DNA of 64,000 nucleotides, from NCBI GenBank assembly GCA_964362125.1, contig CAYICS010000001.1, positions 18,052 to 82,051 on the forward strand. The letters are read 5' to 3'. The position numbers and the translations under genes were made by a program. Positions 1,341 through 63,532 of this stretch are shown here, piece by piece. How positions within the stretch are numbered: the first letter of the stretch is position 1; each line of letters starts with the position of its first letter. The stretch comes from an uncultured Candidatus Saccharibacteria bacterium. GTDB lineage: Bacteria > Patescibacteriota > Minisyncoccia > UBA6257 > UBA11618. The notes beneath the pieces were generated by a model, which worked only from the letters and a program-made list of their open reading frames with translations, was not told where the DNA came from and did no database searches.

Positions 1341-3278
1341 TTGAAATCTAGCAAATTAAACCCGAAACAGCAAGAAGCGGTCAGCCACGGCTCTGGGCCG
1401 CTTTTGATTGCCGCCGGCGCCGGCTCAGGCAAGACCCAGACCCTCACCAACCGCCTCCAATACCTGATTAATACCCTCAAAATACCACCGGGAAATATTC
1501 TCGCCATTACTTTCACCAATAAAGCCGCTGATGAGATGAGAAAAAGGGTTCACATTGGTCAATTGTCAAATACTAAAGGTCAAATGTCATTTATAGGGAC
1601 TTTTCATTCTTTTGGAGCGAAAGTTCTCCGGGAAAACTGTCATCATTTCAACCGCACGCCCCGGTTCACCATCTTTGATGAAGACGACTCGCTGACGCTC
1701 TGCCGGCAAGTCTGCCGGAATCTTAATCTGGATAAGGAGAAATATAACCCCATCGATCTGGCGGGGCAGATTACTGAATTTAAAAATGAGTTGATCCGGC
1801 CTGACCCGACCACAGTCGAAGGCAAAGTCTTCTACGATTATGAAGCTAGTTTGGAAGAAAATAACGGCTTTGATTTTGATGACCTGATTGAAAAGCCGAT
1901 TAAACTATTGCGGGAGAAAGCCGGGATTTTAAAAAAATATCAGGAGCAGTATCAATATATTTTGATTGATGAATATCAGGATGTGAACGCGGCCCAGTAT
2001 CAGTTGGTGAAATTGCTGGCGGGAGAGCGAGCCAACCTCAGTGTTGTCGGCGATGATCAGCAGGCCATTTACGGCTGGAGAGGCGCCGACTTCCGCAACT
2101 TTCTTAACTTTGACAAAGACTGGCCAGCGGCCAAGGTGGTCCTGCTGGAAGAAAACTACCGCTCCACTCCCAATATTCTCCGGGCAGCCAACGAAATCAT
2201 AAAAAACAATAAATTTCAGCGACCGAAGCGCCTCTGGACGCAAAAACCAGAAGGGGAGCCGATCGTCCTTTTCGCTGCTCAAGAAGAACACGAAGAGGCC
2301 GATTGGCTAGCCGGAAAAATCCGTCAACTTTGGCAAAACCAAGGCCATGCGCTGGAAGGCATCGCCCTTATTTACCGCACCAATGCTCAATCGCGGGCCC
2401 TGGAACAGGCTCTGATTGCTGAAGAAGTCCCCTATCGTATTTTCGGCGGCATCAGATTTTACGAACGCAAAGAAATTAAAGATATCCTCGCCGGCCTGCG
2501 CCTGGCCCAAAACCCCAAAGACCAATTAAGTATCGAGCGGCTAGTCAAAAATTTCCCTCAAAGCAAAACCAAATTGCTGGTGGAACAATTGCCGCGGCTG
2601 GCTCAGGAACTAACCCTGATCCAGTTAATCAACTACTTTCTCAACCACACCGACTATTTTCAATATCTGGAACGCCGCTTCCGCAACTCTGAAGAACGAG
2701 AAGAAAACGTCAAAGAGTTAATCAATTTTGCCGCCAGCTTTGTCGACCGGGGCTTAACCGCTTTCTTGGAGCAGGTAAGTTTGGCTCAGGCCCAAGATGC
2801 TCCGGCCGGGGAGCGGGGAGTGAACTTGATGACCATTCACCTGGCTAAGGGGCTGGAATTTGATACGGTTTTTATCGCCGGCTGCAACGAAGGCACCCTG
2901 CCTCACCATCGCTCTTATAACACCGAAGAAGAATTGGAAGAAGAGCGGCGGCTGATGTATGTGGCCGTCACCCGGGCCAGCCAGCGGCTCTTTCTCTCTT
3001 TTAATAAAATCCCCTCTCGCTTTCTCTATGAAATCCCGCCGGAGCTGGTTCTCTTCATCAACCAAAATGGCCGGGCGCCGGCTCGCGGCCGCGAAGGCTG
3101 GTCAGCCGGCCGAAGCCCTGGCGAAGGTTGGTCAGCCAGCCGAAGCAGTGACGGGGGCTGGCCTGCCAGCCGAAGCGATGACGGGGGCTGGCCTGCCAGC
3201 CGAAGCGATGACGGGGGCTGGCCTGCCAGCCGAAGCCTTGGCGAAGGCTGGGAGGAAGAACTGTGGATTGATTATTAA
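1341..3278 (+). CDS. uvrD: ATP-dependent DNA helicase UvrD/PcrA with a repetitive C-terminal extension
   Basis: TTG start; Walker A GAGSGKTQTLTNR, UvrD motifs (DEYQD, GDDQQAIYGWRGA, YRS, VAVTRA). The C-terminal ~60 aa is built from 30-nt tandem repeats. Confidence 0.85.
   Translation: MKSSKLNPKQQEAVSHGSGPLLIAAGAGSGKTQTLTNRLQYLINTLKIPPGNILAITFTNKAADEMRKRVHIGQLSNTKGQMSFIGTFHSFGAKVLRENCHHFNRTPRFTIFDEDDSLTLCRQVCRNLNLDKEKYNPIDLAGQITEFKNELIRPDPTTVEGKVFYDYEASLEENNGFDFDDLIEKPIKLLREKAGILKKYQEQYQYILIDEYQDVNAAQYQLVKLLAGERANLSVVGDDQQAIYGWRGADFRNFLNFDKDWPAAKVVLLEENYRSTPNILRAANEIIKNNKFQRPKRLWTQKPEGEPIVLFAAQEEHEEADWLAGKIRQLWQNQGHALEGIALIYRTNAQSRALEQALIAEEVPYRIFGGIRFYERKEIKDILAGLRLAQNPKDQLSIERLVKNFPQSKTKLLVEQLPRLAQELTLIQLINYFLNHTDYFQYLERRFRNSEEREENVKELINFAASFVDRGLTAFLEQVSLAQAQDAPAGERGVNLMTIHLAKGLEFDTVFIAGCNEGTLPHHRSYNTEEELEEERRLMYVAVTRASQRLFLSFNKIPSRFLYEIPPELVLFINQNGRAPARGREGWSAGRSPGEGWSASRSSDGGWPASRSDDGGWPASRSDDGGWPASRSLGEGWEEELWIDY
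3091..3250 (+). repeat. About 5 tandem copies of a 30-bp repeat (ggctggcctgccagccgaagcgatgacggg-like) encoding GGWPASRSDD units at the UvrD C-terminus
   Basis: Direct reading: three perfect copies and two degenerate ones. Confidence 0.8.
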
Positions 3279-3293
3279 ATACGCTATAATAAA

Positions 3294-3980
3294 ATGATGC
3301 TCAAAAGAATTCTGATTATTACTCTAATTTTAACAACCACTGTTTTTATCGCCTTTGCTCAACCCGGCAGTCAGATCCAAAAAACGACAATCGAAAAAAA
3401 CATCGAGGAAATACAGTACCTAGGAGATTCTCTAAAAGAAAGAGTTAAATTAGTGGTCGACGGACAAATAACTGAGGCCAGAGAAAGAAAAGAGATGATG
3501 GAGGCCGGACGACCTCAAACTAATATCATTGGTCACGAAAGGGTTTTAGACAACTTCATCAAAAAATTACCCCAACCAAAAACAATCGATCAGCGACTGG
3601 CTTGGTGGAAAAAAGTAAAGGAGAAAATTGATCAATTAACCGAGGATAAATCTTTGGCCAATCACCTCCAAGCCCATGCTAATCGATATCTGCTCAATAA
3701 AGAATTTGATGAGGATGTGGGCCGCTATAACAATCTCCTTCGCGAACTCCAGACAAGGGGTTATCTTAAAGGCCTCTCCCCAATGCTAAAGTCTGATTTA
3801 ATAAAAACTGCTCAAGAGGCAGAAATAGCCCGCCTCCGCGCTGAACAAAGACGGCTGGCCCGACAGCAAGCAATCTCTCCACCAGCTACACCCAATATTT
3901 TCCAAAGATTTTTTAACTTCTTCACCAGACCGCCGGCCTTGCCCGGCGGCGGAGGCGGCCCCCGGCGGATTGGGAGATAA
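3294..3980 (+). CDS. hypothetical secreted coiled-coil protein with C-terminal PALPGGGGGPRRIGR tail
   Basis: N-terminal signal peptide, helical charged body, Gly5 and basic C-terminus. A protein with the same C-terminal motif is at 46423-47205. Confidence 0.4.
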   Translation: MMLKRILIITLILTTTVFIAFAQPGSQIQKTTIEKNIEEIQYLGDSLKERVKLVVDGQITEARERKEMMEAGRPQTNIIGHERVLDNFIKKLPQPKTIDQRLAWWKKVKEKIDQLTEDKSLANHLQAHANRYLLNKEFDEDVGRYNNLLRELQTRGYLKGLSPMLKSDLIKTAQEAEIARLRAEQRRLARQQAISPPATPNIFQRFFNFFTRPPALPGGGGGPRRIGR

Positions 3981-7197: not shown

Positions 7198-7940
7198 AAC
7201 ATCTCGGTCAGCATTTCCTTAGAAATCACTCTGCTATTAAAAAAATAGCGGCGGCTTTGGAATTAAAAGAAGGTGATGTCGTTGTTGAAATCGGCTCCGG
7301 ACACGGGGAGTTGACCAACGAATTAATAAACCACCCTATCGAAGTCACCGCCATAGAAAGAGATAAAAACTTGGCGAAAACCCTTGAGTCAAATGTCAAA
7401 AGTCAAAGGTTAAAGGTTATTGAAGGCGACATTCTAAAACTCCTCCCGCAACTCACCTACAACCTACAACCTATCACCTACAAGCTTGTCGGCAACATTC
7501 CCTATTACCTCACCGGCTATTTATTGCGCCTAATAGGGGAGCTGGAATACAAGCCGTCGCTCATAGTTTTCACTCTTCAAAAAGAAGTAGCCGAACGGAT
7601 TGCGGCTAAACCGCCCAAGATGAATAAATTAGCCGCCTCGGTTCAATTCTGGGCTGAGCCGGCAATTATTGATTATCTCCAGCCCGCTGATTTTTCCCCG
7701 CCGCCAAAAGTACATTCGGCTATAATCCGTTTACGCCCTAAACCCCATACCCTAAACCCTAAACCCTATTATCAAATGATTAATCTGCTATTCAAACAGC
7801 CAAGAAAAACAATCAAAAACAACCTCCGCGGCACAGGACTGGAAAACCATTTTAAAACACTTAACCTCACCGGCCAAGAAAGACCGCAGGACTTAGATTT
7901 AGAAAAATTAATACAACTATCTCAGTTTATAAAACTCTAA
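7194..7940 (+). CDS. rsmA: 16S rRNA (adenine1518/1519-N6)-dimethyltransferase KsgA/RsmA
   Basis: HFLRNHSAIKKI...VVEIGSGHGELT SAM motif, NIPYY motif, C-terminal RKTIKNNL. Contains in-frame heptamer arrays (cctacaa-like at ~7458-7490; CCCTAAA at 7736-7769). Confidence 0.85.
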   Translation: MKHLGQHFLRNHSAIKKIAAALELKEGDVVVEIGSGHGELTNELINHPIEVTAIERDKNLAKTLESNVKSQRLKVIEGDILKLLPQLTYNLQPITYKLVGNIPYYLTGYLLRLIGELEYKPSLIVFTLQKEVAERIAAKPPKMNKLAASVQFWAEPAIIDYLQPADFSPPPKVHSAIIRLRPKPHTLNPKPYYQMINLLFKQPRKTIKNNLRGTGLENHFKTLNLTGQERPQDLDLEKLIQLSQFIKL

Positions 7941-8160
7941 ACTCTAAATAAAAGATTTAGGGTATAGGGTTTAGGGTTTAGGGTATAGGGTATTTATAAA
8001 GCTCTAAACTCCAAGCCCTAAGCTCTAAACAAACTCAAAACTCAAAAACGTTTTTGGATTTTGGATTTTGGTTTTTGGAATTTGTTTAGGATTTAGAGCT
8101 TTAGTTTATTTAAGGTTATCCACTAACTACTCACTGCTTCTTAACTTATAATTAAGAGTA
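7937..8160. repeat. Intergenic spacer built entirely of degenerate heptamer tandem repeats (ctctaaa, tttaggg/tataggg x5, aaaactc, attttgg x3 ...) arranged as a long imperfect palindrome
   Basis: 7-bp register holds for about 180 bp. Symmetry centre at aaaaacg|tttttgg (~8048). Contains a telomere-like TTTAGGG run. Confidence 0.8.
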
Positions 8161-14553: not shown

Positions 14554-14830
14554 ATGTACTAAGCCATAAGCCATAAGCCGTAAGCCATAAATCCTAAACT
14601 CTAAATCCTAAACAAATGACAATCATCCAAACTACAAATTCTAAACCCGAGTTTGGGATTTATGATTTAGATATTAGAATTTGTTTAGAGATTACCTGCC
14701 CGCCATCGGCCTGAGCCGAAGGCACTGGCAGGCGGGGAGATTAGAGCTTAGAGCTTTATAAATACCCTACCCCCTAAACGCTAAACCCTAAACGCTAAAC
14801 CCTAAACCCTAAACCCTAAACCACATACCC
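14554..14830. repeat. Heptamer-periodic spacer between virB3-like and virB4: (TAAGCCA)4, (TAAATCC/TAAACTC), ... (CCCTAAA/CGCTAAA)7, with an embedded 44-nt GC-rich hairpin element
   Basis: 7-bp register maintained. The telomere-like CCCTAAA run at 14786-14825 is the reverse complement of the 7965-8000 run. Confidence 0.8.
14694..14738. repeat. 42-44-nt GC-rich palindromic element, copy 1 (cctgcccgccatcggcctgagccgaaggcactggcaggcgggg), flanked by gagatta direct repeats
   Basis: Near-identical copy at 48027-48068 (2 substitutions plus a compensatory change in the inner stem). Confidence 0.7.
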
Positions 14831-15445
14831 TTGACCAAAGAAACTTTACCCACTCAAGAGCTGATCCCAATTGAAGATATCAAAAACGATACCCTGATTT
14901 TAAACAATGGCGGCCTGCGGAAAATTCTGCTGGTCTCGGGAGTGAATTTAGAATTGAAGTCAGAACAGGAACAGGAACTGACGATTCTCACTTACCAGGA
15001 TTTGATTAACTCCCTTGATTTTCCTATCCAGCAGCTGATTCACACCCGGAAACTTAATATTGAAGACTACCTGCGGAAAATTGGTCTGCGTCAGCAAAAC
15101 GAAAAACAACCCCTCTTGAAAAATCTTATTGAAGACTACCAGAAATTTGTCGGTGATTTTGTCAGCCAAAATCCCATTATGACCAAAAGTTTTTTCCTGG
15201 TTGTCCCTCATCAACCCCTGGCCAGCTTAAAACAAACAGGGAGGGCAGTCCGGAAAGGAGTCCTCGGCATCTTCCGCCGCCAGCCAGGGACTTTGATTGA
15301 AGCCGCTGAAGAAGACTTCCGGCAATTAGAACAAAAAGTTGAAAAAATTATCAATAACTTGGCCCAGATCGGTCTGCGCGCCCTGCCCCTTAATCGCGAA
15401 GAAATTTCCGAACTGCTTTACAATCTCTATAACCCAACTAATTAA
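14831..15445 (+). CDS. VirB4/TraE-like protein, N-terminal domain fragment (204 aa)
   Basis: IEDIKNDTLILNNGGLRKILLVSGVNLELKSEQEQELTILTYQDLINSLDFPIQQLI matches the N-terminus of Gram-positive VirB4 homologues (PrgJ/TrsE/ConE). Ends at TAA 15446-15448, 3 nt before the ATPase ORF. Confidence 0.5.
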   Translation: MTKETLPTQELIPIEDIKNDTLILNNGGLRKILLVSGVNLELKSEQEQELTILTYQDLINSLDFPIQQLIHTRKLNIEDYLRKIGLRQQNEKQPLLKNLIEDYQKFVGDFVSQNPIMTKSFFLVVPHQPLASLKQTGRAVRKGVLGIFRRQPGTLIEAAEEDFRQLEQKVEKIINNLAQIGLRALPLNREEISELLYNLYNPTN

Positions 15446-17474: not shown

Positions 17475-17520
17475 CTTATGGCTTATGGCTTATGGCTTAT
17501 CTATGGCTTATGGCTTATAG
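17475..17520 (+). repeat. (TTATGGC) heptamer tandem repeat, 3 perfect and about 3 degenerate copies, covering the start codon and N-terminus of the next gene
   Basis: tcttatggcttatggcttatggcttatctatggcttatggcttatag; each unit contains an ATG. The reverse complement (GCCATAA)4 is present at 14560-14590. Confidence 0.85.
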
Positions 17521-32451: not shown

Positions 32452-33324
32452 GTGAAAACCCTCCTTTTAATAGATGCTCACGCTCTGATTTATCGTTTTT
32501 TTCATGCCTTGCCGGCTCTAACCACGCCCGACAACCAGCCCATCGGCGCTGTTTATGGTTTAGCCAATGTCATTTTAAAAATCCTCCGCGAGCATCAACC
32601 TGATTATCTGGCCGCCTGTTTTGACCGGCCGGAAGAGACTTTTCGGCGAAAAGAATATGCGCAATACAAAGCCACCCGGCAGGCGCCGCCTGATGAGCTG
32701 ATCTCCCAATTTAAGATCAGCCGTGAGCTTTTGGATAAATTCCAGATTCGGGTGGTGGAGATGCCGGGCTTTGAAGCTGATGATTTAATCGGCACTTTGG
32801 CGGAGAAATTTAAAAAGGAACCCAATCTGAAAATTGTGATATTTTCCGGCGACCTCGATCTTCTGCAGTTGGTGGAAAACGATAAAGTAGTGGTGGAATT
32901 TCTCAAAACCGGCATCAGCGACACCATGACCTATGATGAAAAAGCCGTGGCAGCCCGCTATGATTTAAGGCCTGAACAACTGCCCGATCTCAAGGGTTTA
33001 TTGGGCGATGTTTCTGATAATATTCCCGGGGTAAAGGGAGTGGGGCCGAAAACCGCAGGCCCCTTGATTAAAAAATACGGCACGCTGGAAAATCTTTTTG
33101 AAAATCTTTGGCAGGTGTCGGATAAAATTGGTCTGAAATTAACTGATAAAAAAGAGGAGGCGTTGTTTTCTAAAAAACTGGCCACTATTAAAAGAGATGT
33201 GCCGCTGTTTGTCCAGTCGCTTAATGACTTGAAATTAGAAGCGATTGATAGGGGTGGTTTAGTTAAATATTTCGAAAATTTGGGATTTATCAGTTTGATA
33301 AAAAGATTGAACTCAACTAATTAA
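32452..33324 (+). CDS. polA: DNA polymerase I 5'-3' exonuclease (FEN) domain as a stand-alone ORF
   Basis: LLLIDAHALIYRFFHA, GFEADDLIGT, helix-hairpin-helix GVKGVGPKTA motifs of Pol I 5'-nuclease; stop at 33322-33324. Confidence 0.8.
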   Translation: MKTLLLIDAHALIYRFFHALPALTTPDNQPIGAVYGLANVILKILREHQPDYLAACFDRPEETFRRKEYAQYKATRQAPPDELISQFKISRELLDKFQIRVVEMPGFEADDLIGTLAEKFKKEPNLKIVIFSGDLDLLQLVENDKVVVEFLKTGISDTMTYDEKAVAARYDLRPEQLPDLKGLLGDVSDNIPGVKGVGPKTAGPLIKKYGTLENLFENLWQVSDKIGLKLTDKKEEALFSKKLATIKRDVPLFVQSLNDLKLEAIDRGGLVKYFENLGFISLIKRLNSTN

Positions 33325-33345
33325 ACGATCGTCTAATTAGTTGAG
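33309..33345. repeat. palindromic element centred on CGATCG (actcaactaatta-aacgatcgtc-taattagttgagt) overlapping the 5'-nuclease stop codon
   Basis: Perfect 13-bp arms; related CGATCG-core palindromes at 40113, 47552 and 63441. Confidence 0.6.
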
Positions 33346-33398
33346 TAGTTGAGTAATAGTAAGTAATAGTAAAATAATTAGGTAACTAGGCTTCTAGT

Positions 33399-38925: not shown

Positions 38926-40740
38926 TTATACAATATCAGAAAGATGTGGTTCATGCAACTTCTTAATGATGGAGGCCGGGATGATGCCCAGCTTCTTGTT
39001 ATAGCGAGCCTGAATTTTTCGGCGCCGCTCAGTTTCAGTAATTGTTTTTTTAATGGAGTCAGTGAGGAAGTCGGCGTAGAGGATTACCTCGCCTTTGATG
39101 GAACGTGAAGCTCGGCCAGCCATTTGCATCAAACTGCGGTGATTGCGCAAAAAACCCTCTCGGTCCGCGTCAAGAATCGCAACCAGAGAAACTTCCGGCA
39201 GATCCAGCCCCTCCCGTAAAAGATTGATGCCCACCAACACATCGACATCGCCCCGCCGCAATTGATTGAGAATTTTCGGTCGCTGCAGAGTTTTGATTTC
39301 CGAGTGCATATAATTGGCGCGGATGCCCCGGGCCAAGAGAAATTCTGTGAGGTTTTCCGAGGCGCGTTTGGTGAGAGTGAGAGCCAGGACTCGTTCGTTG
39401 TTGCGGACACGCTTGGTGATTTCTTCAATCAGATTAGCTACTTGAGAAACCGCCGGCCGGACAATAATTTTTGGATCAAGGATGCCGGTGGGGCGAACCA
39501 ATTGTTCCGCCACCCGGCCGCGCTCTAATTCATATGACCCGGGAGTGGCCGAGACACAAATTGTCTGGCCAATGCGTTGGTTGAATTCTTTAAAAGCGAG
39601 CGGCCGGTTATCAAAGGCTGAAGGCAGACGAAAACCATAATTCACTAAAGTCTGCTTGCGGCGCCGGTCGCTTTCCTGCATCGCCCGCAGTTGAGGAATG
39701 GCAATGTGGGATTCGTCAATAAAGAGCAGAAAGGGGCGGGGGAAGTAGTCAAGTAATGTCAGCGGCGGCTCGCCGGGCTGGCGAAAATCTAAATGGCGGG
39801 AGTAATTTTCAATTCCGTGGACATAGCCTTTTTTCTTAAGCATCTGCAGATCAAAAAGAGTACGGCGTTCCAGCCGGTCGGCTTCTTCAAATTTGCCGGC
39901 GGCCTGCAGTTCGTCCATTCTCTCTTCCATTTCAGTCTTAATGTTGCGCAGAGAGAGATTAAAGAGATGCTGGGGAGTGACCCAAAACTTTGCTGGATAA
40001 ATATCCAGCAAAGTTTGACTTTTGACAGTTGACAATTGATCATTGACCAATTGAATTGTTTTAATTCTTCTTTTTTTGATCTCGATTTCTAGTTTTTCAT
40101 CGGTTACCAAATGTACTTTTACTAAAGTAATTCTACGATCGTGGAGATAGTTTAGTAGAGCGAATTGACCGAGCGCGGGTTCTTGGTTGGGGCGAGCTTT
40201 TTCATAACGGAGGAATTGCAGATGGCGCTCAATGTCTTTTTCGTTGATTATTTGCCCGACGCGCATTTTCAAGCGGGCTTTGCGATAGTTTTCCGGACTG
40301 CCGAGGCCGTAGATGCAGGAAACAGAAGCGATCACAATTGCATCCGGCCGCGACAAAACACTTTGAATGGCGGCGTGGCGCAGTTTATCAATATCCAGAT
40401 TAATCCGGGCGTCTTTTTGAATATAGGTTTGAGTCAGCGGTAGATAGGCCTCGGGTTGGTAGTAGTCGTAAAAAGAAACAAAATAGTGGACAGCATTGCT
40501 GGGGAAGAAGTTTTTGAATTCCTGATAGAGCTGGGCGGCGAGAGTCTTGTTGGGAGAAATGATCAGTGTTGGCAGGTCGGTTTTGGCAATCACCGAAGCC
40601 ATGGTGTAGGTTTTGCCTGATCCGGTGACGCCCAAAAGCACCTGGTCTTTCAGGTTTTCGTCGAGGCCGCCAATTAGCTTTTTAATAGCTTGAGGCTGGT
40701 CGCCTTTGGGCTGAAATTGAGAAATTAGATGGAAACTCAT
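38926..40740 (-). CDS. uvrB: excinuclease ABC subunit B (UvrB)
   Basis: Walker A GVTGSGKTYTMA, beta-hairpin region, DESH box (IDESHIAIPQ), helicase C motifs. Contains half of a CGATCG palindromic element in frame at ~40113-40140. Confidence 0.9.
   Translation of the reverse strand: MSFHLISQFQPKGDQPQAIKKLIGGLDENLKDQVLLGVTGSGKTYTMASVIAKTDLPTLIISPNKTLAAQLYQEFKNFFPSNAVHYFVSFYDYYQPEAYLPLTQTYIQKDARINLDIDKLRHAAIQSVLSRPDAIVIASVSCIYGLGSPENYRKARLKMRVGQIINEKDIERHLQFLRYEKARPNQEPALGQFALLNYLHDRRITLVKVHLVTDEKLEIEIKKRRIKTIQLVNDQLSTVKSQTLLDIYPAKFWVTPQHLFNLSLRNIKTEMEERMDELQAAGKFEEADRLERRTLFDLQMLKKKGYVHGIENYSRHLDFRQPGEPPLTLLDYFPRPFLLFIDESHIAIPQLRAMQESDRRRKQTLVNYGFRLPSAFDNRPLAFKEFNQRIGQTICVSATPGSYELERGRVAEQLVRPTGILDPKIIVRPAVSQVANLIEEITKRVRNNERVLALTLTKRASENLTEFLLARGIRANYMHSEIKTLQRPKILNQLRRGDVDVLVGINLLREGLDLPEVSLVAILDADREGFLRNHRSLMQMAGRASRSIKGEVILYADFLTDSIKKTITETERRRKIQARYNKKLGIIPASIIKKLHEPHLSDIV
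40113..40140. repeat. degenerate copy (left arm plus core) of the CGATCG-centred palindromic element (tactaaagtaattctacgatcgt), in frame inside uvrB
   Basis: 22-mer identical to the left half of the 63441-63478 palindrome; followed by tttagtagag as in the other copies. Confidence 0.6.
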
Positions 40741-46422: not shown

Positions 46423-47205
46423 ATGGGTCGCTTCATCCTGATAATTGTTTTGAGTCTGGTTTCTACTTTAGTTTTTACTTTCCGGGTGTTGGGGCAGGAA
46501 AGCGGCCCCAAGCGAACGCCGCCCCATCCAGATTATTTTTTTGAAAAGCTCGAGAAGATATTAGGTATCGCTTTCGAGAGGGGCCAAGTCTCCTACTTTT
46601 TTTATATCGATGATGAGGGCACAATTACCCATATTGAATATAATGATCTAGATTCGGAAATGAGATTTATAATGCCTTTGGAAACTTTTATAGAACGCCG
46701 CTTGTCAACTGAAGAAGATCGGGCAAGCTTCAGGCGGCTGCTTGGTCAATACCGGGACGCTGTTCGCTACCAGAATTTAGTTGAGGCTTATAATCAAGGG
46801 GGACAGCTGTTAAGGAATTTGCAAGGCAGATTAAAAAATATGAGGAAAATGATTATAAGAATTATCGGAATAGAAAATACAGAAAATCTTCAAGAATTAT
46901 TTGATTCGGCCAAGGTAGGTAATAAGGCTTTTGAGAAGTACTTGTCTAAACTGCTGAATCCTCGTACCGATGAGCCGTTGGCAGAGGAGGATAAACAGAG
47001 ACTGCGTGATTATTTTCGGATTTTAGAATTGGGAAATCAAATAGAGGCATCAAGACAGAAGCTCCTACCAAGAATTGACTGGTTAAGAGCAAGAATTCTG
47101 GGATTGCCGCCTCCGCCACCATCCAGAAATCAACCAGCTATTCCTCGACGTCGGCCGCCGAATCTGCCCGGTGGCGGTGGTGGTGGTATACCGAGATTAA
47201 GGTGA
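46423..47205 (+). CDS. hypothetical secreted coiled-coil protein with C-terminal PPNLPGGGGGGIPRLR tail
   Basis: Signal peptide; same unusual C-terminal motif as the 3294-3980 protein; its stop overlaps the start of the downstream Wzy_C-like gene. Confidence 0.4.
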   Translation: MGRFILIIVLSLVSTLVFTFRVLGQESGPKRTPPHPDYFFEKLEKILGIAFERGQVSYFFYIDDEGTITHIEYNDLDSEMRFIMPLETFIERRLSTEEDRASFRRLLGQYRDAVRYQNLVEAYNQGGQLLRNLQGRLKNMRKMIIRIIGIENTENLQELFDSAKVGNKAFEKYLSKLLNPRTDEPLAEEDKQRLRDYFRILELGNQIEASRQKLLPRIDWLRARILGLPPPPPSRNQPAIPRRRPPNLPGGGGGGIPRLR

Positions 47206-48299
47206 TTAAATTACTAGTCTGGATTGGCTTAGCAATTGTTATCGGATTATATATCAGGCCTAAGTGGATTTATGGTTTTTTGGCGATTGGGGGAGTGATT
47301 GAGGCGTTAATTGGTTTTGGCCAATTTCTTCAGCAGAAAAGTTTGGGCTTGCAATTTTTCGGCGAGCCGGTTTTAAGTCCGCTTAATCCAGATGTGGCGC
47401 GGATTTTTATTGACACCGGCGGCTGGCTTGCCAGCCGCGGCCTTGGCGAAGGCTGGGGGAGATTACTGCGCGCCTACGGCACCTTTCCTCACCCTAATAT
47501 CTTGGCGGCATTTCTTGTTCTCGCTATAATTTCTTTTAACTATCTATCTACTAAACTTATTCGACGATCGTCGAATAAGTTTAGTAGCGGTGGATTATTT
47601 TTTGGGACAGCAGGGATTTTTATTTTATGGCTTGGCCTGATTCTCACTTTTTCCCGCGCCGGCTGGCTGGCGGCTTTGATTATCACTTTGTTTTACCTGA
47701 TTGACCGCTGTCCGACAGTGGTCAGATGGCGGCTGGCTGCCATAGTTATTATCACAGTCATTGGTCTTGTTGTTATTTTCCATTGGGCTGTTTTGCCGCG
47801 GCTGGCTTTTACCGACAGTTTTGTTATTCAGGAAAGAATTAGTGATTACCAGCGCGCTTGGCAATTAATTAAAGAAAAGCCGTTCTTTGGTCATGGTTTG
47901 ACTTTGGCAATGGCAGAGAGGCCGATTCATAATTTGTATCTGACTATTGCTGTTGAAATTGGTCTTTTCGGTCTGGCGGTGTTTTTGGTTTTTGTGATTT
48001 TTACATTAATTGAAAATTGGAAATTGCCTGCCCGCCATCGGTCTGAGCCTCAGGCACTGGCAGGCGGGAAAATTGGAAATTCCCCAGCAGCAATAATGCT
48101 CGTGGCATTATTGCTGCTGGGTCTGTTTGATCATTTTCTCTGGACTTTGCGGCCGGGCTTGGCTATGCTGTGGTTGGTAATTGGATTGCTATGGCAGTCT
48201 GATCGCTCTCGTAGTTCAATGGATAGAATATCTCCCTCCGAAGGAGGTGATGCAGGTTCGATTCCTGCCGAGAGCACAAACAAAAATACGGATGTCTGA
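47202..48299 (+). CDS. O-antigen ligase/Wzy_C-family polytopic membrane protein; the 3' part of the ORF reads through two palindromic repeat elements and the tRNA-Arg gene
   Basis: Multiple TM helices; FSRAGWLAALIITLFYLI Wzy_C-type motif. The true stop is uncertain: the ORF covers 48205-48276, which folds as a canonical tRNA. Confidence 0.5.
   Translation: MIKLLVWIGLAIVIGLYIRPKWIYGFLAIGGVIEALIGFGQFLQQKSLGLQFFGEPVLSPLNPDVARIFIDTGGWLASRGLGEGWGRLLRAYGTFPHPNILAAFLVLAIISFNYLSTKLIRRSSNKFSSGGLFFGTAGIFILWLGLILTFSRAGWLAALIITLFYLIDRCPTVVRWRLAAIVIITVIGLVVIFHWAVLPRLAFTDSFVIQERISDYQRAWQLIKEKPFFGHGLTLAMAERPIHNLYLTIAVEIGLFGLAVFLVFVIFTLIENWKLPARHRSEPQALAGGKIGNSPAAIMLVALLLLGLFDHFLWTLRPGLAMLWLVIGLLWQSDRSRSSMDRISPSEGGDAGSIPAESTNKNTDV
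47552..47591. repeat. perfect 40-bp palindrome ctactaaacttattcgacgatcgtcgaataagtttagtag (CGATCG core), in frame inside the Wzy_C-like CDS
   Basis: Variant of the 63441-63478 palindrome with compensatory changes on both arms; encodes STKLIRRSSNKFSS. Confidence 0.8.
48027..48068. repeat. 42-nt GC-rich palindromic element, copy 2 (cctgcccgccatcggtctgagcctcaggcactggcaggcggg), in frame inside the CDS and flanked by a 13-bp direct repeat aaaattggaaatt
   Basis: Copy of 14694-14738; the flanking direct repeat resembles a target-site duplication. Confidence 0.7.
48205..48276 (+). tRNA. tRNA-Arg (anticodon CCG)
   Basis: Manual fold: acceptor gctctcg/cgagagc; D-arm gttc-aatggata-gaat; anticodon stem tctcc/ggagg with loop cTCCGaa; variable loop tgat; T-arm gcagg-TTCGATT-cctgc; discriminator A. 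No encoded CCA. Confidence 0.8.
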
Positions 48300-48318
48300 C
48301 ATCCGTATTTTTGTTTGT
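48277..48318 (+). terminator. perfect 21-bp hairpin (acaaacaaaaatacggatgtc tga catccgtatttttgtttgt) immediately after the tRNA
   Basis: Perfect inverted repeat with T-rich descending arm. Confidence 0.5.
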
Positions 48319-48475
48319 CTAGGAATCGAACGGAAAGGGGTCGGGAAACGGGAGTTTCCCGTGTCGGAAGGCAGCGACCCCGACCGCAGTCGGGGGAGTG
48401 CTGGGAAACCGAGGGTTTCCAGATGGTGAGATAGCGAAGCCCCGCAGGGCGGGGCGAGCGTCCTGCCGAGAGCGC
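48319..48475 (+). other. GC-rich multi-hairpin region ending in a degenerate copy of the tRNA-Arg 3' end (tcctgccgagagcgca); candidate ncRNA or integration-site remnant
   Basis: Stems gggaaa/tttccc, ctgggaaacc/ggtttccag, gccccgc/gcggggc. 14/17 match to the tRNA 3' end at 48456-48472. Confidence 0.25.
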
Positions 48476-48568
48476 ATAATATAAAAAAGCTTGACTTCTG
48501 GCTTAAATTATGCTATACTTATATATAGCAGTAGTTTTGACAGGAAACTCTTTTTGGAGGCTCTGAAG

Positions 48569-48901
48569 ATGAGAAACGTTTTGGCGGTGCTGTTGCTTTT
48601 GGCCGGCAGTGTCGAAGCCCAAGAACGGCGGTTCCGGGATTGGGTCTTGACCAGCGAGGCGCCCCAGCAATTCCGGGTGCGGCGTCCCCAGAGACCGCCG
48701 CGGCTGTTGGGGATTATTCCTCATCGGGCGGAAAAGGGCTGGGGCGGTCTGGGCTGGCATGGCAGCTGGCACAGCTACAACCCTTTCTGGGATACCCGCA
48801 AGTCCTTTGACGGCTACGATGGTCAAGGAGGAAAATGGCGGGAAGTGGTCGAATTCAAAAATGGTTTTCCCCGCCGCAACTTCAGGCGCGTTGCCCGGTA
48901 G
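48569..48901 (+). CDS. small secreted Arg/Gly/Trp-rich hypothetical protein
   Basis: RBS GGAGG, ATG 48569, signal peptide MRNVLAVLLLLAGSVEAQ, terminator right after the stop. The ORF-track minus-strand ORF 48503-48928 is the mirror frame. Confidence 0.45.
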   Translation: MRNVLAVLLLLAGSVEAQERRFRDWVLTSEAPQQFRVRRPQRPPRLLGIIPHRAEKGWGGLGWHGSWHSYNPFWDTRKSFDGYDGQGGKWREVVEFKNGFPRRNFRRVAR

Positions 48902-57508: not shown

Positions 57509-57829
57509 TGGTGGAAGTGGGGAGTTTGACCTCCCGTCCGAAACTTTTCCGCCAGATAGTTCTACAAGCTTAGTCCTTCGATAAACTCGGGACAAATTTT
57601 GCCGCTCAACTTCTGTTTTCAGCCACGGCCCTCTGAAAACATAGCTTGATTTATAACACCGCTGAATCGCCTATCAAGCTTCAGCGAGCGATGCCGCTTT
57701 AGGCAAAAGCCAAAGCGGGAGTTCGATTAAATGCGTTGGCAAATAATCTTTTTGCAACGGATTTAGGAGACGTTGCCGCTCCGCTTGCCTATCTGGTTTC
57801 AATGTTCCGTCGAAGCCTTTGCCACTCCC
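57509..57829 (-). ncRNA. ssrA: tmRNA (ssrA)
   Basis: Minus strand: 5' GGGAGUGGCAAAGGCUUCGACGG (canonical GGGG.UGA..GGNUUCGACGG), 3' GGACGGGAGGUCAAACUCCCCACUUCCACCA (T-arm plus acceptor plus encoded CCA; G3:U70 pair). Internal tag frame GCCAACGCAUUUAAUCGAACUCCCGCUUUGGCUUUUGCCUAA gives ANAFNRTPALAFA*. Confidence 0.85.
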
Positions 57830-58232
57830 TTTGTTTGATGGCGGCGCGCTTGTCCTGTTTCTTTCTGCCCCGCCCCAAGCCCAATTCAATTTTGATCAGG
57901 CGGTTCTTATTATACACCCGCAAGGGGAGCAGAGTCAAGCCGGCGCGCTGGATTTTTCCGATCAATTCTTTAATCTCGGATTTTTTCAAAAGCAGGCGGC
58001 GCGATCTCTTGGGGTCATAGTCAGCTGGAGTATTGGCTGGCTGATAAGGCGGGATATCGGCGTTGATCAGCCAAAGCTGATTGTCTTTGACCGCGGCAAA
58101 AGATCCGGCCAGATTGATCCGGCCGGTTTTAACGGCTTTAACCTCAAATCCTTTTAGTTCAATCCCCGCTTCGTAGGTTTCCAGAATCTGATAGTCAAAG
58201 CGTGCCCGTCGGTTTTCAGCGATGACTTTCAT
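57789..58232 (-). CDS. smpB: SsrA-binding protein SmpB
   Basis: Conserved SmpB core (ENRRARFDYQILETYEAGIELKGFEVKA...) and basic C-terminal tail. The last 41 nt overlap the tmRNA 5' end. Confidence 0.85.
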   Translation of the reverse strand: MKVIAENRRARFDYQILETYEAGIELKGFEVKAVKTGRINLAGSFAAVKDNQLWLINADIPPYQPANTPADYDPKRSRRLLLKKSEIKELIGKIQRAGLTLLPLRVYNKNRLIKIELGLGRGRKKQDKRAAIKQREWQRLRRNIETR

Positions 58233-60589: not shown

Positions 60590-63431
60590 AGATTTTAACC
60601 TGCCCAAAGTTGAGGAAGAGGTTTTAAGTTTTTGGAGAAAAAATAGGGTGTTTGAAAAATCGCTTGCCCTTCGACAGGCTCAGGGCAAAAAACACTACGT
60701 GTTTTTTGAAGGCCCGCCCACGGCCAATGCCAAGCCGGGGATTCATCATGTTCTGGCAAGGGTTTTCAAGGATATAATTCTTCGCTATAAAACGATGAGC
60801 GGTTTTTTTGTGGCGCGCCGCGCCGGCTGGGACACCCATGGCTTGCCGGTGGAAATTGAGATTGAAAAGAAACTGGGTTTTAAAAACAAACAGGATATTG
60901 AAAAATACGGCATTACCAAGTTCAATAAACTGGCGCGAGAGTCGGTCTGGCAATATAAAAAAGATTGGGAGGATTTAACCGAGCGCATCGGCTTTTGGCT
61001 GGATTTGGAACACCCTTATATCACTTACGAAAATCAATACATCGAAAAGCTCTGGGGGATTTTTAAAGAGATTGATAAGCGGGGATTGCTTTATAAAAGC
61101 CATAAGGTGGTGCCGTGGTGCAGCCGTTGCGGCACGGCTTTGTCTTCGCATGAATTGGCGCAAGGGTATGAAGAAACAAAAGACCTGGCGGTCTTTGTTA
61201 AATTTCCAATATCCAATTCCCAATTTCCAAAAACTTATATTTTTTCTTGGACGACGACGCCCTGGACTTTGCCGGGGAATGTGGCCTTGGCCATAAATCC
61301 GAAGCATAAATTTGTGAAGGTTCCTGATCCAGAGGAAAAGGGAAGTTGGTTAATTTTGGAAAAAGAAAGCGTCCACCGTCTCTGGCCCAAAATCGCTTCT
61401 TCGCAAGAAGCGATTATTGGGGTAAAAGAGTTGCTGGGATTAGAGTACGAGCCGTTGTTCAAAATCCCCGCCCTTCAATCCCCCACTTCTTATAAAATTT
61501 ATCCGGCGGATTTTGTGACAGCCGATGAAGGCACGGGCGTGGTCCATACAGCCGTGATGTATGGAGAAGATGACTATGAGTTGGGCAAAAAAGTCGGCTT
61601 GCCGCAATTTCATACTGTTGATGAGCAGGGCCGGTTCATTAAAGAGGTACCGGTTGTCGGGGGAATGTATGTGAAGGCGCCGGAGACGGAAAAGAAAATT
61701 ATTGAACACCTTAAAGCCCAGAGCTTATTGCTTAAGGTCGAACCATACACTCACGATTACCCTTTCTGTTGGCGCTGCGGCACACCCGTGCTTTATTATG
61801 CTCGCGATTCCTGGTTTATCGCGATGAGCAAATTACGCAAGGAGTTGCAGGCGGCCAATAAAAAAATCAACTGGATTCCCGGACATTTGCGCGAGGGTCG
61901 ATTTGGTGAATGGTTGAAAGAAGTGAAAGACTGGGCGATCTCGCGAGAACGATATTGGGCGACCCCGCTGCCAATTTGGATTTGTGTAAAATGTGACAAT
62001 AAAGTTGTAATAAGTAGTAGTAAAGAGATTGAGGAACGCGGCGGCAAGCCGCCCAAAGATTTACACCGTCCGTATATTGATGATGTTGTTTTGAAATGCC
62101 CGGAATGCGGCGGAGAAATGCGGCGGGTAAAAGAAGTGATGGATGTTTGGTTTGATTCGGGAGCAATGCCTTTTGCCAGCGGCGAATATCCGGAAAGATA
62201 TCCAGCTGATTATATTTGTGAAGCTATCGATCAAACCCGCGGCTGGTTTTATACGCTTTTGGCCGTCGGCGTTTTAATGAAAAAAGGGACGCCTTATAAA
62301 AATGTTATTTCTCTTGGGCATGTGCTTGATAAGCAGGGCCGGAAGATGTCTAAGTCGTTGGGCAACACCGTTGATCCTTGGCAGATGATTAATAAATACG
62401 GCATTGATGTTGTCCGTTGGTATTTCTACACCATCAACCCACCGGGGGAGCCAAAAAGATTTGATGAAGGAGATCTAAATTTGGTTTATAGAAGATTTCA
62501 TTCTTTGGTTTACAATTCTTATCTATTTTGGGCGTCTTATAGTATCGATGCTAATCTACGAATGAATGCGAATGATACGAATAGCAATGCGAATGTTTTA
62601 GATCGCTGGATTCTAGCGCGGCTTAACGAGACGACGGCCAAAGTTACAGAGCGGCTTGATGATTATGACATTGGTACAGCGGCTAAGGCGATTGAGCTGC
62701 TGGTAGATGATTTATCCCATTGGTATATTCGCCGCTCGCGGAGGCGACCGGAAGCATTGCCAGTGTTGGGCTATGTTTTACTGGAAATCAGCAAGCTGAT
62801 CGCTCCCTTTACGCCGTTTTTTGCCGAAGCATTATTTCAGTCTCTAAACCCTAAACCCTACACCCTAAACCCTTCTATTCACTTGACCGATTGGCCCAAG
62901 GCCGACAAAAAGCTGATTGATAAAAAACTGCTTGGTCAAATGGCCCAAATCCGGCAGTGGACCAGCCAGGCGTTAGCGGCGCGAGCAGAAGCCGGCATTA
63001 AGGTTCGTCAGCCGCTAGCTAAATTAAAAATTTCCGCCCGAGGCGGATCCCATGCCTACCGGCAGGCAGGCGTCTCTGGCGGAAAAAATGAAAAATTAAA
63101 AATTAATGAGGAGTTATTGAATATCTTAAAAGACGAAGTAAATGTAAAAGAAATTGTTTTTGACAATAAGATCAAAAATGAGATTGAGCTGGATATAAAA
63201 ATCACTCCCGAACTCCGTCAAGAGGGAATTTATCGAGAGCTGGTGCGGCTGATTCAGGATTTCCGCAAAGAGAAAAAACTAAAGCCGCAGGATAAGATTA
63301 AACTGCGCGCTGAATTGCCGGAAGATATGTTAGAAGTGGCGCAAAAGAATGATGAGCAACTACGAAAAGAAGTTAATGCTATTAAAATAGATTATAAGAA
63401 GGCTGGTAAGGTTGACTTAGAGTTGACTTAG
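60573..63431 (+). CDS. ileS: isoleucyl-tRNA synthetase
   Basis: HIGH-type motif PPTANAKPGIHH; KMSKS; CP1 editing domain; C-terminal zinc-binding region. Contains an in-frame CCCTAAA run at 62844-62872. Confidence 0.9.
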   Translation: MLKINKDFNLPKVEEEVLSFWRKNRVFEKSLALRQAQGKKHYVFFEGPPTANAKPGIHHVLARVFKDIILRYKTMSGFFVARRAGWDTHGLPVEIEIEKKLGFKNKQDIEKYGITKFNKLARESVWQYKKDWEDLTERIGFWLDLEHPYITYENQYIEKLWGIFKEIDKRGLLYKSHKVVPWCSRCGTALSSHELAQGYEETKDLAVFVKFPISNSQFPKTYIFSWTTTPWTLPGNVALAINPKHKFVKVPDPEEKGSWLILEKESVHRLWPKIASSQEAIIGVKELLGLEYEPLFKIPALQSPTSYKIYPADFVTADEGTGVVHTAVMYGEDDYELGKKVGLPQFHTVDEQGRFIKEVPVVGGMYVKAPETEKKIIEHLKAQSLLLKVEPYTHDYPFCWRCGTPVLYYARDSWFIAMSKLRKELQAANKKINWIPGHLREGRFGEWLKEVKDWAISRERYWATPLPIWICVKCDNKVVISSSKEIEERGGKPPKDLHRPYIDDVVLKCPECGGEMRRVKEVMDVWFDSGAMPFASGEYPERYPADYICEAIDQTRGWFYTLLAVGVLMKKGTPYKNVISLGHVLDKQGRKMSKSLGNTVDPWQMINKYGIDVVRWYFYTINPPGEPKRFDEGDLNLVYRRFHSLVYNSYLFWASYSIDANLRMNANDTNSNANVLDRWILARLNETTAKVTERLDDYDIGTAAKAIELLVDDLSHWYIRRSRRRPEALPVLGYVLLEISKLIAPFTPFFAEALFQSLNPKPYTLNPSIHLTDWPKADKKLIDKKLLGQMAQIRQWTSQALAARAEAGIKVRQPLAKLKISARGGSHAYRQAGVSGGKNEKLKINEELLNILKDEVNVKEIVFDNKIKNEIELDIKITPELRQEGIYRELVRLIQDFRKEKKLKPQDKIKLRAELPEDMLEVAQKNDEQLRKEVNAIKIDYKKAGKVDLELT

Positions 63432-63440
63432 ATTTGTTGT

Positions 63441-63478
63441 AAGCTTTGCTATTAAATTACTAAAGTAATTCTACGATC
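63441..63478. repeat. perfect 38-bp palindrome tactaaagtaattctacgatcgtagaattactttagta (CGATCG core) between convergent ileS and trpS, followed by tagtaga-type heptamers
   Basis: Direct reading; same family as the 47552 and 40113 copies. Confidence 0.8.
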
Positions 63479-63532
63479 GTAGAATTACTTTAGTAGATTA
63501 GTAGAGATTAGTAGAGTATAGTAGAGTAGTTT

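Follow-up and report, generated by a model that had tools for sequence, protein, structure and literature searches.

The segment at positions 48276 to 48476 of the window, the 64-kb stretch of Candidatus Saccharibacteria DNA analyzed here (contig CAYICS010000001.1; overall G+C content, 46.2%), begins at the 3' end of a tRNA-Arg(CCG) gene and is read, with slightly less than even confidence, as a decayed nonautonomous insertion module that targets the region from the T-loop to the 3' end of Patescibacteria tRNA genes. This reading draws on the anatomy of the segment, on recurrence of the same layout at other tRNA genes, on conserved structure in its core, and on the presence or absence of whole units between relatives. 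Proceeding from the tRNA, the parts are as follows:

48205-48277, + strand: tRNA-Arg(CCG), intact, discriminator A73, no encoded CCA (ARAGORN; Rfam RF00005)
48259-48278, + strand: proximal copy of segment S, CGATTCCTGCCGAGAGCACA (repeat analysis)
48276-48318, strand neutral: perfect hairpin, segment Y (repeat analysis)
48321-48331, + strand: inverted copy of the T-loop and the start of the T-stem 3' strand, AGGAATCGAAC (repeat analysis)
48332-48460, + strand: GC-rich structured core, type A (folding; homology to loci L017 and L098)
48461-48476, + strand: distal partial direct copy of the tRNA 3' end, TCCTGCCGAGAGCGCA, with G73 (repeat analysis)

The tRNA, described as canonical in a first-pass annotation made from the letters alone, was called at this position by both ARAGORN and Rfam (68.9 bits, compared to a gathering score of 29). 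Segment S consists of the 3' part of the T-loop, the 3' strand of the T-stem, the 3' strand of the acceptor stem, and 2 nucleotides (nt) of trailer. Its repeated part, TCCTGCCGAGAGCACA at 48263 to 48278, is identical to the distal copy TCCTGCCGAGAGCGCA at 15 of 16 positions; the partial repeat of the tRNA 3' end seen in the first pass is real, and the match is better than the 14 of 17 given there. With up to 2 mismatches allowed, 0.05 matches per window are expected by chance, and two matches were obtained in none of 100 shuffles. A further repeat was overlooked in the earlier annotation: AGGAATCGAAC is a perfect 11-nt reverse complement of the T-loop segment GTTCGATTCCT (48256 to 48266) and is the left boundary of the module. 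Both the direct repeat and the inverted 11-mer are far beyond chance.

Hairpin Y begins at the discriminator base of the tRNA, and its two 21-nt arms (48276 to 48296 and 48298 to 48318) are 100% complementary around a 1-nt loop, in agreement with the perfect 21-bp hairpin reported earlier. Read directly from the sequence, the inner stem CGGATGTC/GACATCCG is followed by TATTTTTGTTTGT, and with its A-tract and T-tract the hairpin looks like a two-way intrinsic terminator; a terminator consensus scan made no call for Y because the T-run sits inside the extended perfect stem. The remaining block (48319 to 48460) is indeed GC rich and structured. Its G+C content is 65.5%, compared to 46.2% for the window, placing it in the top 1.6% of 142-nt windows, and its fold energy has z-scores against shuffled sequence of −2.3 on the + strand and −3.6 on the − strand. 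Within it, the type A core forms the hairpins CGGGAAAC/GTTTCCCG, CCCCGAC/GTCGGGG, GGAAACC-GAG-GGTTTCC, and GCCCCGC/GCGGGGC. The block is unique, with no second copy elsewhere in the window.

The distal copy carries G73, as does the tRNA of the closest relative (L009), and the working tRNA carries A73. Such a difference would follow from an insert that brought its own 3' end to the tRNA and pushed the earlier one aside; the distal copy is probably that displaced original. The window copy looks decayed, because only about 4 bp of its closing stem is left and a copy of the acceptor strand is missing; with so short a closing stem, it is probably immobile.

An insertion could produce this arrangement as follows. 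A small circular or folded intermediate would carry a copy of S, the terminator hairpin Y, an inverted copy of S, and the structured core, X. Recombination of this intermediate with a chromosomal tRNA would take place within S, close to the CG of the T-loop sequence TTCGATT, so that the tRNA would retain its own 5' part and gain the element's 3' end (A73) along with a terminator, and the original 3' end (G73) would be displaced about 200 bp downstream. The order of the product would be tRNA(S), Y, inverted S, X, and direct S. In a folded-single-strand variant, the inverted S would pair with S and imitate a duplex target, and one strand exchange would give the same order. In either form the recombinase would act in trans.

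The same layout was found at other tRNA genes. The 44-nt 3' half of the window's tRNA-Arg(CCG) was present in 5 genomes when GTDB was scanned and in 23 contigs when metagenomes were scanned (loci are designated by an L and a number). A substantial fraction of these loci has the order tRNA, hairpin Y, inverted T-loop/T-stem copy (extending in some units to the acceptor strand), structured core X, and direct S copy (CGATTCCTGCCGGGAGCA). Units follow tRNA-Arg(CCG) in L017, L022, L027 (two in tandem), L028 (two), and L035, with a degenerate unit in L020; other units follow tRNA-Arg(GCG) in L033 and L036 and tRNA-Pro(GGG) in L004. The inverted T-loop motif is at the equivalent place in L017, L022, L027 (both units), L028 (both units), L035, L033, L036, and L004. 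Within every unit the inverted and direct copies agree with the local tRNA (GCAGG/CCTGC, ACAGG/CCTGT, CGAGG/CCTCG, or CCGG/CCCGG), and the hairpins at the Y position are analogous to that of the window, not homologous to it. All copies examined are in the sense orientation relative to the neighboring tRNA; an invertible switch was rejected on this basis.

Units are 100 to 250 bp in size, with a single larger example of 2.4 kb. In this locus, L016, 2.4 kb separates the direct copies, a stretch of 2.2 kb containing three open reading frames (ORFs) occupies the Y position, and the core lies immediately before the distal copy. The three ORFs between the repeats suggest, from layout, that the module can carry cargo, and both the tandem units and the L016 unit fit a cassette-like logic. 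The cargo ORFs had no family match (subthreshold matches only in Pfam, none in PHROGs).

Comparison of relatives revealed occupied and empty sites. L015 and L027 share both flanks (tRNA-Ala and tRNA-Arg at one end and, at the other, a gene whose translation looks ArsR-like), and relative to the empty L015, the about 400 extra bases of L027 are exactly two units. L026 and L034 are also empty sites. Where tRNA-Arg(GCG) and tRNA-Arg(CCG) stand in tandem, the distance between the two genes varies from 28 nt to 213 nt according to whether a module is there. Contigs identical to that of the window were recovered from groundwater assemblies of the Hainich aquifer.

The cores fall into two types, and in both, pairing is maintained while sequence changes. 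A type A homologue in L017 (740 to 879, − strand) matches the window core at 42 of 54 positions aligned in the 5' part, with 66% identity overall, and a third copy lies in L098 (about 1330 to 1420, − strand). L017, the closest homologue of the window core, is on a contig of 57% G+C with neighboring genes unrelated to those of the window. In these relatives the hairpin CGGGAAAC/GTTTCCCG becomes CGGGGAACC/GGTTCCCCG through compensatory changes, and GGAAACC-GAG-GGTTTCC becomes AAAAACC-GAG-GGTTTTT or AGAAACC-GAG-GGTTTCT, again with pairing kept. The unpaired motifs GGGGUCGGG, CCCGUNUCGG, and AAACCGAGGGUUU are conserved in type A.

Type B, with a closing stem around two arms, was found in L004, L016, L036, L027, L028, L025, and L030. 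It is homologous across tRNA-Arg(CCG), tRNA-Arg(GCG), and tRNA-Pro(GGG) contexts, and its flanks follow the local tRNA. Among three compact copies, 14 of 40 pairs are compensatory, with 7 G·U pairs compared to 2 A·C pairs on the tRNA-sense strand. In an alignment of seven copies, which was fitted to the structure model, 91% of cells are paired, compared to 72% in shuffles and 35 to 48% in slid controls, and 25 of 40 pairs change on both sides. Conserved unpaired motifs of type B are GGUGCCCAGGC and AGCCGCGGG.

In several units the T-stem strand is also preceded by an acceptor-like 5' strand and, at the D-arm position, by a hairpin that covaries; two of these maintain pairing via T·G wobble. 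Two further contexts contain cores without any tRNA-derived repeats, type B between tRNA-Arg(GCG) and tRNA-Arg(CCG) in L025 and L030 and type A 3 nt upstream of an interrupted tRNA in L098. These repeat-free cores immediately precede genuine tRNAs and so probably form part of a transcript, as a leader or spacer. The interrupted gene in L098 (1040 to 1310, − strand; acceptor GCCAATG...CATTGGC, D-arm TAGCTCAGTTGGTAGAGCA) is a tRNA split near the anticodon loop by an insertion of about 215 nt, which matched no Rfam intron family at an E value of <0.1; ARAGORN misses this tRNA gene.

Cores of this kind raise a different explanation, in which X is a structured noncoding RNA of tRNA operons, made from the tRNA-sense strand and excised by tRNA-processing enzymes. 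If a genuine tRNA comes next, cleavage by RNase P would set the 3' end of the RNA; in other units, the two copies of the tRNA 3' end, one inverted and one direct, would pair into a minihelix resembling an acceptor and T-stem, possibly a signal for processing and CCA addition that recruits RNase P, RNase Z, and the CCA-adding enzyme. Strong covariation in type B cores, the bias toward G·U over A·C on the tRNA-sense strand, the conserved unpaired motifs of both types, and the sense orientation of every copy all agree with an RNA, as do the probable transcription of the repeat-free cores and the acceptor-like strand and covarying D-arm-position hairpin of several units. These points are countered by a strong terminator-like hairpin between tRNA and core in the window, L022, the first unit of L027, and L033, and by the scan of 48296 to 48340, which found no promoter-like site. 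The closing stem is largely gone and the acceptor 5' strand absent in both the window and L017, most of the hairpins are perfect Watson-Crick palindromes, and the covariation in the seven-copy alignment is subject to its fitting to the model. A patchy distribution with sites empty in close relatives, the occurrence of tandem copies, and a foreign composition are characteristic of selfish DNA rather than of an RNA that the cell requires. Rfam 15 matched only the tRNA in 48150 to 48600 at an E value of <10, leaving the block unmatched on both strands, as it was at the gathering score, and in eight other unit-bearing loci its meaningful matches were likewise tRNAs only. On balance, we consider the RNA explanation rather unlikely, although it is the main rival to an insertion module. 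The first pass had offered a structured noncoding RNA cotranscribed with the tRNA as its alternative; the covarying cores, two of them directly 5' of genuine tRNAs, speak for that proposal, and the missing Rfam match and the terminator-like hairpin separating the block from the tRNA speak against it.

Other identities for the block were rejected. Neither a likeness to signal recognition particle RNA (GGAA tetraloop and GCAGC) nor a likeness to the 5' end of transfer-messenger RNA (tmRNA) (GGAUUCGAC) is conserved in L017, and both went unscored by models. ARAGORN and Rfam identified no tRNA, tmRNA, or tRNA-like gene in the block, which has no T-loop hairpin or anticodon arm on either strand; a minus-strand tRNA or pseudo-tRNA was dismissed because it would have no T-stem/acceptor pairing and drew no ARAGORN or Rfam call. 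A retroelement primer-binding site was rejected because, read in antisense, the distal copy corresponds to the gene (…GCGCA) instead of a mature tRNA with a CCA tail.

Insertion of a module remains the preferred explanation, and several observations weigh against it. One is the repeat-free cores described above, which would not be predicted if X were only part of an attachment site. Covariation of the flanks with three different target tRNAs requires extra assumptions, and the direct repeat varies in length from 16 to about 50 nt. L009 has no block, its flank is too diverged for a clean empty site, and its contig ends 165 nt after the tRNA; no block-free strain variant was found among contigs carrying the flanking proteins, which are either identical or start within the block or the tRNA. 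Integrase genes, for which the first-pass annotation had proposed a search nearby, were not detected within 44 to 52 kb by Pfam (nine ORFs at 44.0 to 51.8 kb, no recombinase) or anywhere in the window by a catalytic-motif scan of ORFs of at least 120 amino acids (aa). For 64 window ORFs, the top 25 of 86 Pfam families were all housekeeping families with no recombinase among them, and a distant integrase could have escaped this listing; no recombinase was found at the occupied loci.

Searches of IMG/VR and of phage and plasmid collections likewise turned up no module that was free or carried by a phage, and neither an excised form nor an autonomous relative was found. The phage search had no match, the plasmid search had one 37-nt match at chance level, and three IMG/VR pattern scans for the unit or its cores had no match. 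The 14-mer TTTAGCCGCGGGAG matched 56 times in IMG/VR; one match passed a context filter (CCAGGC no more than 70 nt upstream or GGAATCGAA no more than 300 nt upstream), and by eye it was unlike the type B core.

An integrase-type scar was the main proposal of the first pass. Under this explanation, the segment would be the ordinary remnant of a large integrase-encoding island or prophage, later deleted to about 200 bp. Inoviruses and other elements with tRNA attachment sites have been reported in the candidate phyla radiation (CPR) (PMC6813254), and several findings support insertion at a tRNA attachment site: an intact tRNA at one end faces a 15/16 partial 3'-end repeat at the other, the repeat is not due to chance, the composition is foreign, units are present or absent between L015 and L027, and the G73/A73 difference fits. 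What does not fit is the rest of the anatomy. Separate deletions, in one genome and another and at one tRNA and another, would not all have spared the same small homologous core; the inverted T-loop copy, which ordinary integrase scars lack, would be unexplained; and no integrase or pseudogene lies near this segment of only about 200 bp. A deleted island is accordingly very improbable.

In favor of insertion, tRNA 3' ends are active recombination targets in this group, as shown by a serine recombinase element that abuts several of them. The catalytic-motif scan picked up a large serine recombinase (Resolvase, Recombinase, and Zn_ribbon domains) that lies against tRNA-Arg(CCG) in L031 (contig Ga0209542_10005653) and L006, enclosed by a pair of 97-nt inverted repeats beginning at the 3' end of the tRNA. 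Three further loci have the 3' end of the recombinase gene against tRNA-Leu(TAA), tRNA-Tyr(GTA), or tRNA-Arg(TCT), with the junction between GCA and CCAG, and the 3' end of the recombinase gene always faces the 3' end of the tRNA gene. The genes are at 9063 to 10751 in L031 and 4001 to 5560 in L096 to L101, and the repeats of about 97 nt end in GCACCAG. More than 7,600 database relatives, 79 to 93% identical among those listed and spread over many Patescibacteria lineages, suggest a very successful mobile element targeting tRNA ends. At the syntenic tRNA-Arg(CCG) site of L010, a gene-less remnant of the element's repeats is present. The element is not the module itself, since its junction falls after the discriminator, not in the T-loop, and its repeats are unlike the cores by visual comparison; the recombinase is one candidate for an enzyme that could act on the module in trans.

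Also in L010, an HAD-like ORF downstream of the tRNA (3348 to 3700, + strand) has an in-frame TGA where Trp is expected and is either a pseudogene or recoded; gene callers predict an ORF on the opposite strand instead. A 12-nt match in L010, CTGCCGAGAGCG, lies inside an HAD-like coding sequence and was dismissed as a coincidence.

In another proposed origin, the segment is a by-product of local DNA instability where a palindromic terminator comes after a tRNA. The inverted copy would arise by template switching or fold-back synthesis and the direct copy by slippage or unequal crossing-over, and the GC-rich core would have no role of its own. In L004 (1 to 116, − strand; JAYOEC010000005.1), tRNA-Arg(CCG) is followed by at least 3.5 exact tandem units of 40 nt, each consisting of the last 19 nt of tRNA-Arg and 21 nt of trailer, in an array that reaches the end of the stored stretch. 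A whole tRNA-Arg(CCG) is tandemly duplicated with a 97-nt period in L022 (223 to 392) and not in the near-identical L027 (1567 to 1639). Both cases mark the locus as prone to tandem duplication and agree with instability, as do the variable repeat length, the terminator palindromes of L029 and L036 that reach into the acceptor 3' strand with no core there, and other GC-rich palindromic inserts with target duplications in the same genome, such as that at 48017 to 48077. Perfect palindromes can be kept by quasi-palindrome correction, a further point in favor. Instability fails to account for a core that is not locally derived and is homologous at unrelated loci in three tRNA contexts, for conserved junction and loop sequences, and for the same order of parts at least 10 times. 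We regard it as improbable, less so than a deleted island.

In and around the proposed insertion module are the following features:

47202-48299, + strand: Wzy_C (O-antigen-ligase-like) ORF, 365 aa (PF04932, E = 8e-17)
48491-48519, + strand: promoter-like site for the next gene, TTGACT-17-TATACT with extended TG, outside the module (promoter scan)
48569-48901, + strand: 110-aa ORF, 60% G+C, signal-peptide-like N terminus, no family match

The Wzy_C ORF spans the entire tRNA and stops at a TGA (48297 to 48299) in the hairpin loop, so the read-through described in the first pass is present. Its overlapping tail is not conserved: about 30 C-terminal residues of the window protein occur in none of 13 aligned homologues, which terminate at about ...GLLL plus 0 to 15 aa. 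L009 and L010, the closest two relatives that share this gene order, likewise have Wzy directly against tRNA-Arg(CCG), with the stop codon of the gene within the 5' part of the tRNA. The stop in L009 is a TAG at tRNA positions 8 to 10; the frame of the window gene differs, so this stop is missed. Because the tail is unshared by homologues and the relatives stop in the tRNA 5' part, the overlap is a result of tight packing and a missed stop and not a conserved coding feature. Two independent assemblies, L001 and L002, break at the tRNA 5' end (their position 1 corresponds to window positions 48209 and 48208), likely due to near-identical tRNA-Arg(CCG) genes in co-occurring Patescibacteria genomes.

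L009 has GCTTGAC at a position comparable to that of the promoter-like site. The 110-aa ORF is predicted by gene callers in L003 and L094 and had only subthreshold Pfam matches and no PHROGs match.

The Wzy ORF itself contains several repeats. A 61-nt GC-rich palindromic insert at 48017 to 48077, 85% identical to a copy at 14685 to 14745, is flanked by a 14-nt direct duplication, GAAAATTGGAAATT, and encodes a peptide stretch that most Wzy homologues lack; it looks like an in-frame insertion resembling a miniature inverted-repeat transposable element (MITE). A perfect 18-bp hairpin at 48083 to 48121 is in the conserved C-terminal membrane segment. The piece at 47417 to 47468 is 83% identical to part of a set of 30-nt GC-rich tandem repeats at 3092 to 3263 (GGCTGGCCTGCCAGCCGAAGC...) and encodes WLASRGLGEGW, an insertion absent from most homologues. 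One copy of a near-perfect palindrome of about 41 nt (CTACTAAA..TCGACGATCGTCGA..TTTAGTAG) is also within the ORF (47548 to 47588), and other copies are at 40119 to 40159, 63457 to 63497, and 33309 to 33349.

Elsewhere in the window, a full-length tmRNA (57509 to 57829, − strand; 125 bits in Rfam and not reported by ARAGORN) lies directly downstream of smpB (57789 to 58229, − strand), with slight overlap. Arrays of the telomere-like heptamer CCCTAAA/TTTAGGG and related heptamers occur at 7736 to 8101, 14560 to 14846, 17475 to 17500, and 62828 to 62874. Among these arrays are 59-nt inverted repeats (88%) on either side of a 6.7-kb segment (8.0 to 14.7 kb), which contains a large ORF with many proline repeats.

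Patescibacteria (CPR) have tiny genomes, are uncultured, and are poorly understood; knowledge of their mobile DNA and noncoding RNAs is scant. If the units are mobile, they represent a minimal and harmless way to colonize tRNA genes, in which the insert brings a replacement 3' end and a terminator, and the genes for tRNA-Arg and tRNA-Pro would be hot spots of recombination. Assemblies can break at such places, and gene callers can be misled, as with the 365-aa ORF annotated here through a tRNA. If the units are RNAs, two conserved structured motifs are added to a group with few known, and tRNA-like capping is suggested as a bacterial maturation signal.

The module was also compared to known systems. 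A MITE or other small transposon is a poor match: the inverted ends AGGAATCG/CGATTCCT seen in other units amount to about 4 bp in the window, the duplication varies in length from 16 to about 50 nt, and the block is single copy in 64 kb. The serine recombinase element (L031, L096 to L101) resembles the module in its location at tRNA 3' ends, including that of tRNA-Arg(CCG), in being bounded by inverted repeats that begin at the tRNA end, and in leaving a gene-less remnant (L010). Unlike the module, it inserts after the discriminator, between GCA and CCAG, and has inverted repeats of about 97 nt and a 1.5-kb gene; no sequence similarity to type A or type B cores was noticed by visual comparison.

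Integron attC sites are recombination sites that act as folded single strands (PMC3458562, PMC5027507). The arrays described here are similarly a fixed site (the tRNA 3' end) followed by units of optional cargo, an inverse core site, a variable structured middle, and a core site, and as in attC, structure is conserved above sequence, folding is strand biased, and some units are free of ORFs. In contrast to integrons, no IntI is adjacent, the upstream neighbors being Wzy (window) or tRNA-Ala (L027 and L028). The attC consensus RYYYAAC/GTTRRRY does not fit either: the left end, ATCGAAC, fits at 6 of 7 positions, and the distal end begins with CGATTCC or TCCT, with no GTT. The middle of the module is branched instead of a single imperfect hairpin, and the target is a tRNA.

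Phages of the CTX type integrate through a folded single-stranded attP that mimics dif and is used by XerCD. Their predicted product has the same order as the module, a hybrid site, loop or cargo, an inverted site copy, the remainder, and a hybrid site, but the module does not target dif and has no phage genes. Plant mitochondrial t-elements, mascRNA of MALAT1, and the tRNA-like domain of tmRNA are tRNA-like processing signals. As in those RNAs, acceptor-like and T-stem-like stems close an unrelated body in several units, with a hairpin at the D-arm position; unlike them, the module has no T-loop or anticodon arm, and the window copy has no acceptor 5' strand.

The module does not have the defining features of integrons, MITEs, or any Rfam family, and it lacks the integrase of a classic island. 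An undescribed, Patescibacteria-specific class is possible, if doubtful, either as miniature cassettes that integrate as folded single strands at tRNA T-loops, with a stem mimicking the duplex 3' end of the target tRNA in the manner of an integron or CTX-phage site, or as RNAs capped by a tRNA-derived acceptor/T-minihelix and matured by tRNA-processing enzymes. Cores of types A and B would in both cases count as new structured nucleic acid motifs.

The closest resemblance is to tRNA-targeted islands and prophages. The module has an intact tRNA at one boundary and a partial 3'-end direct repeat at the other, consists of compositionally foreign DNA that is present or absent among relatives, and resupplies the tRNA 3' end from the insert. 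It differs from these elements in its size (100 to 250 bp; 2.4 kb in L016) without an integrase, in opening with an inverted T-loop/T-stem copy, sometimes with the acceptor strand, and in having a covarying structured core that is the same at three tRNAs with tRNA-matched flanks. The cis-mobilizable elements (CIMEs) of Streptococcus are kilobases long, derived by deletion from integrative and conjugative elements (ICEs), flanked by attachment sites, mobilized in trans, and able to accrete in tandem with ICEs. Like the module, they have flanking attachment sites, no recombinase, and tandem accumulation at one tRNA-type site, and unlike it, they have no inverted copy of the target and no structured core. 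Taken as a whole, the unit resembles above all a tRNA-targeted integrative element of which only the attachment region is left, and in this it is comparable to CIMEs.

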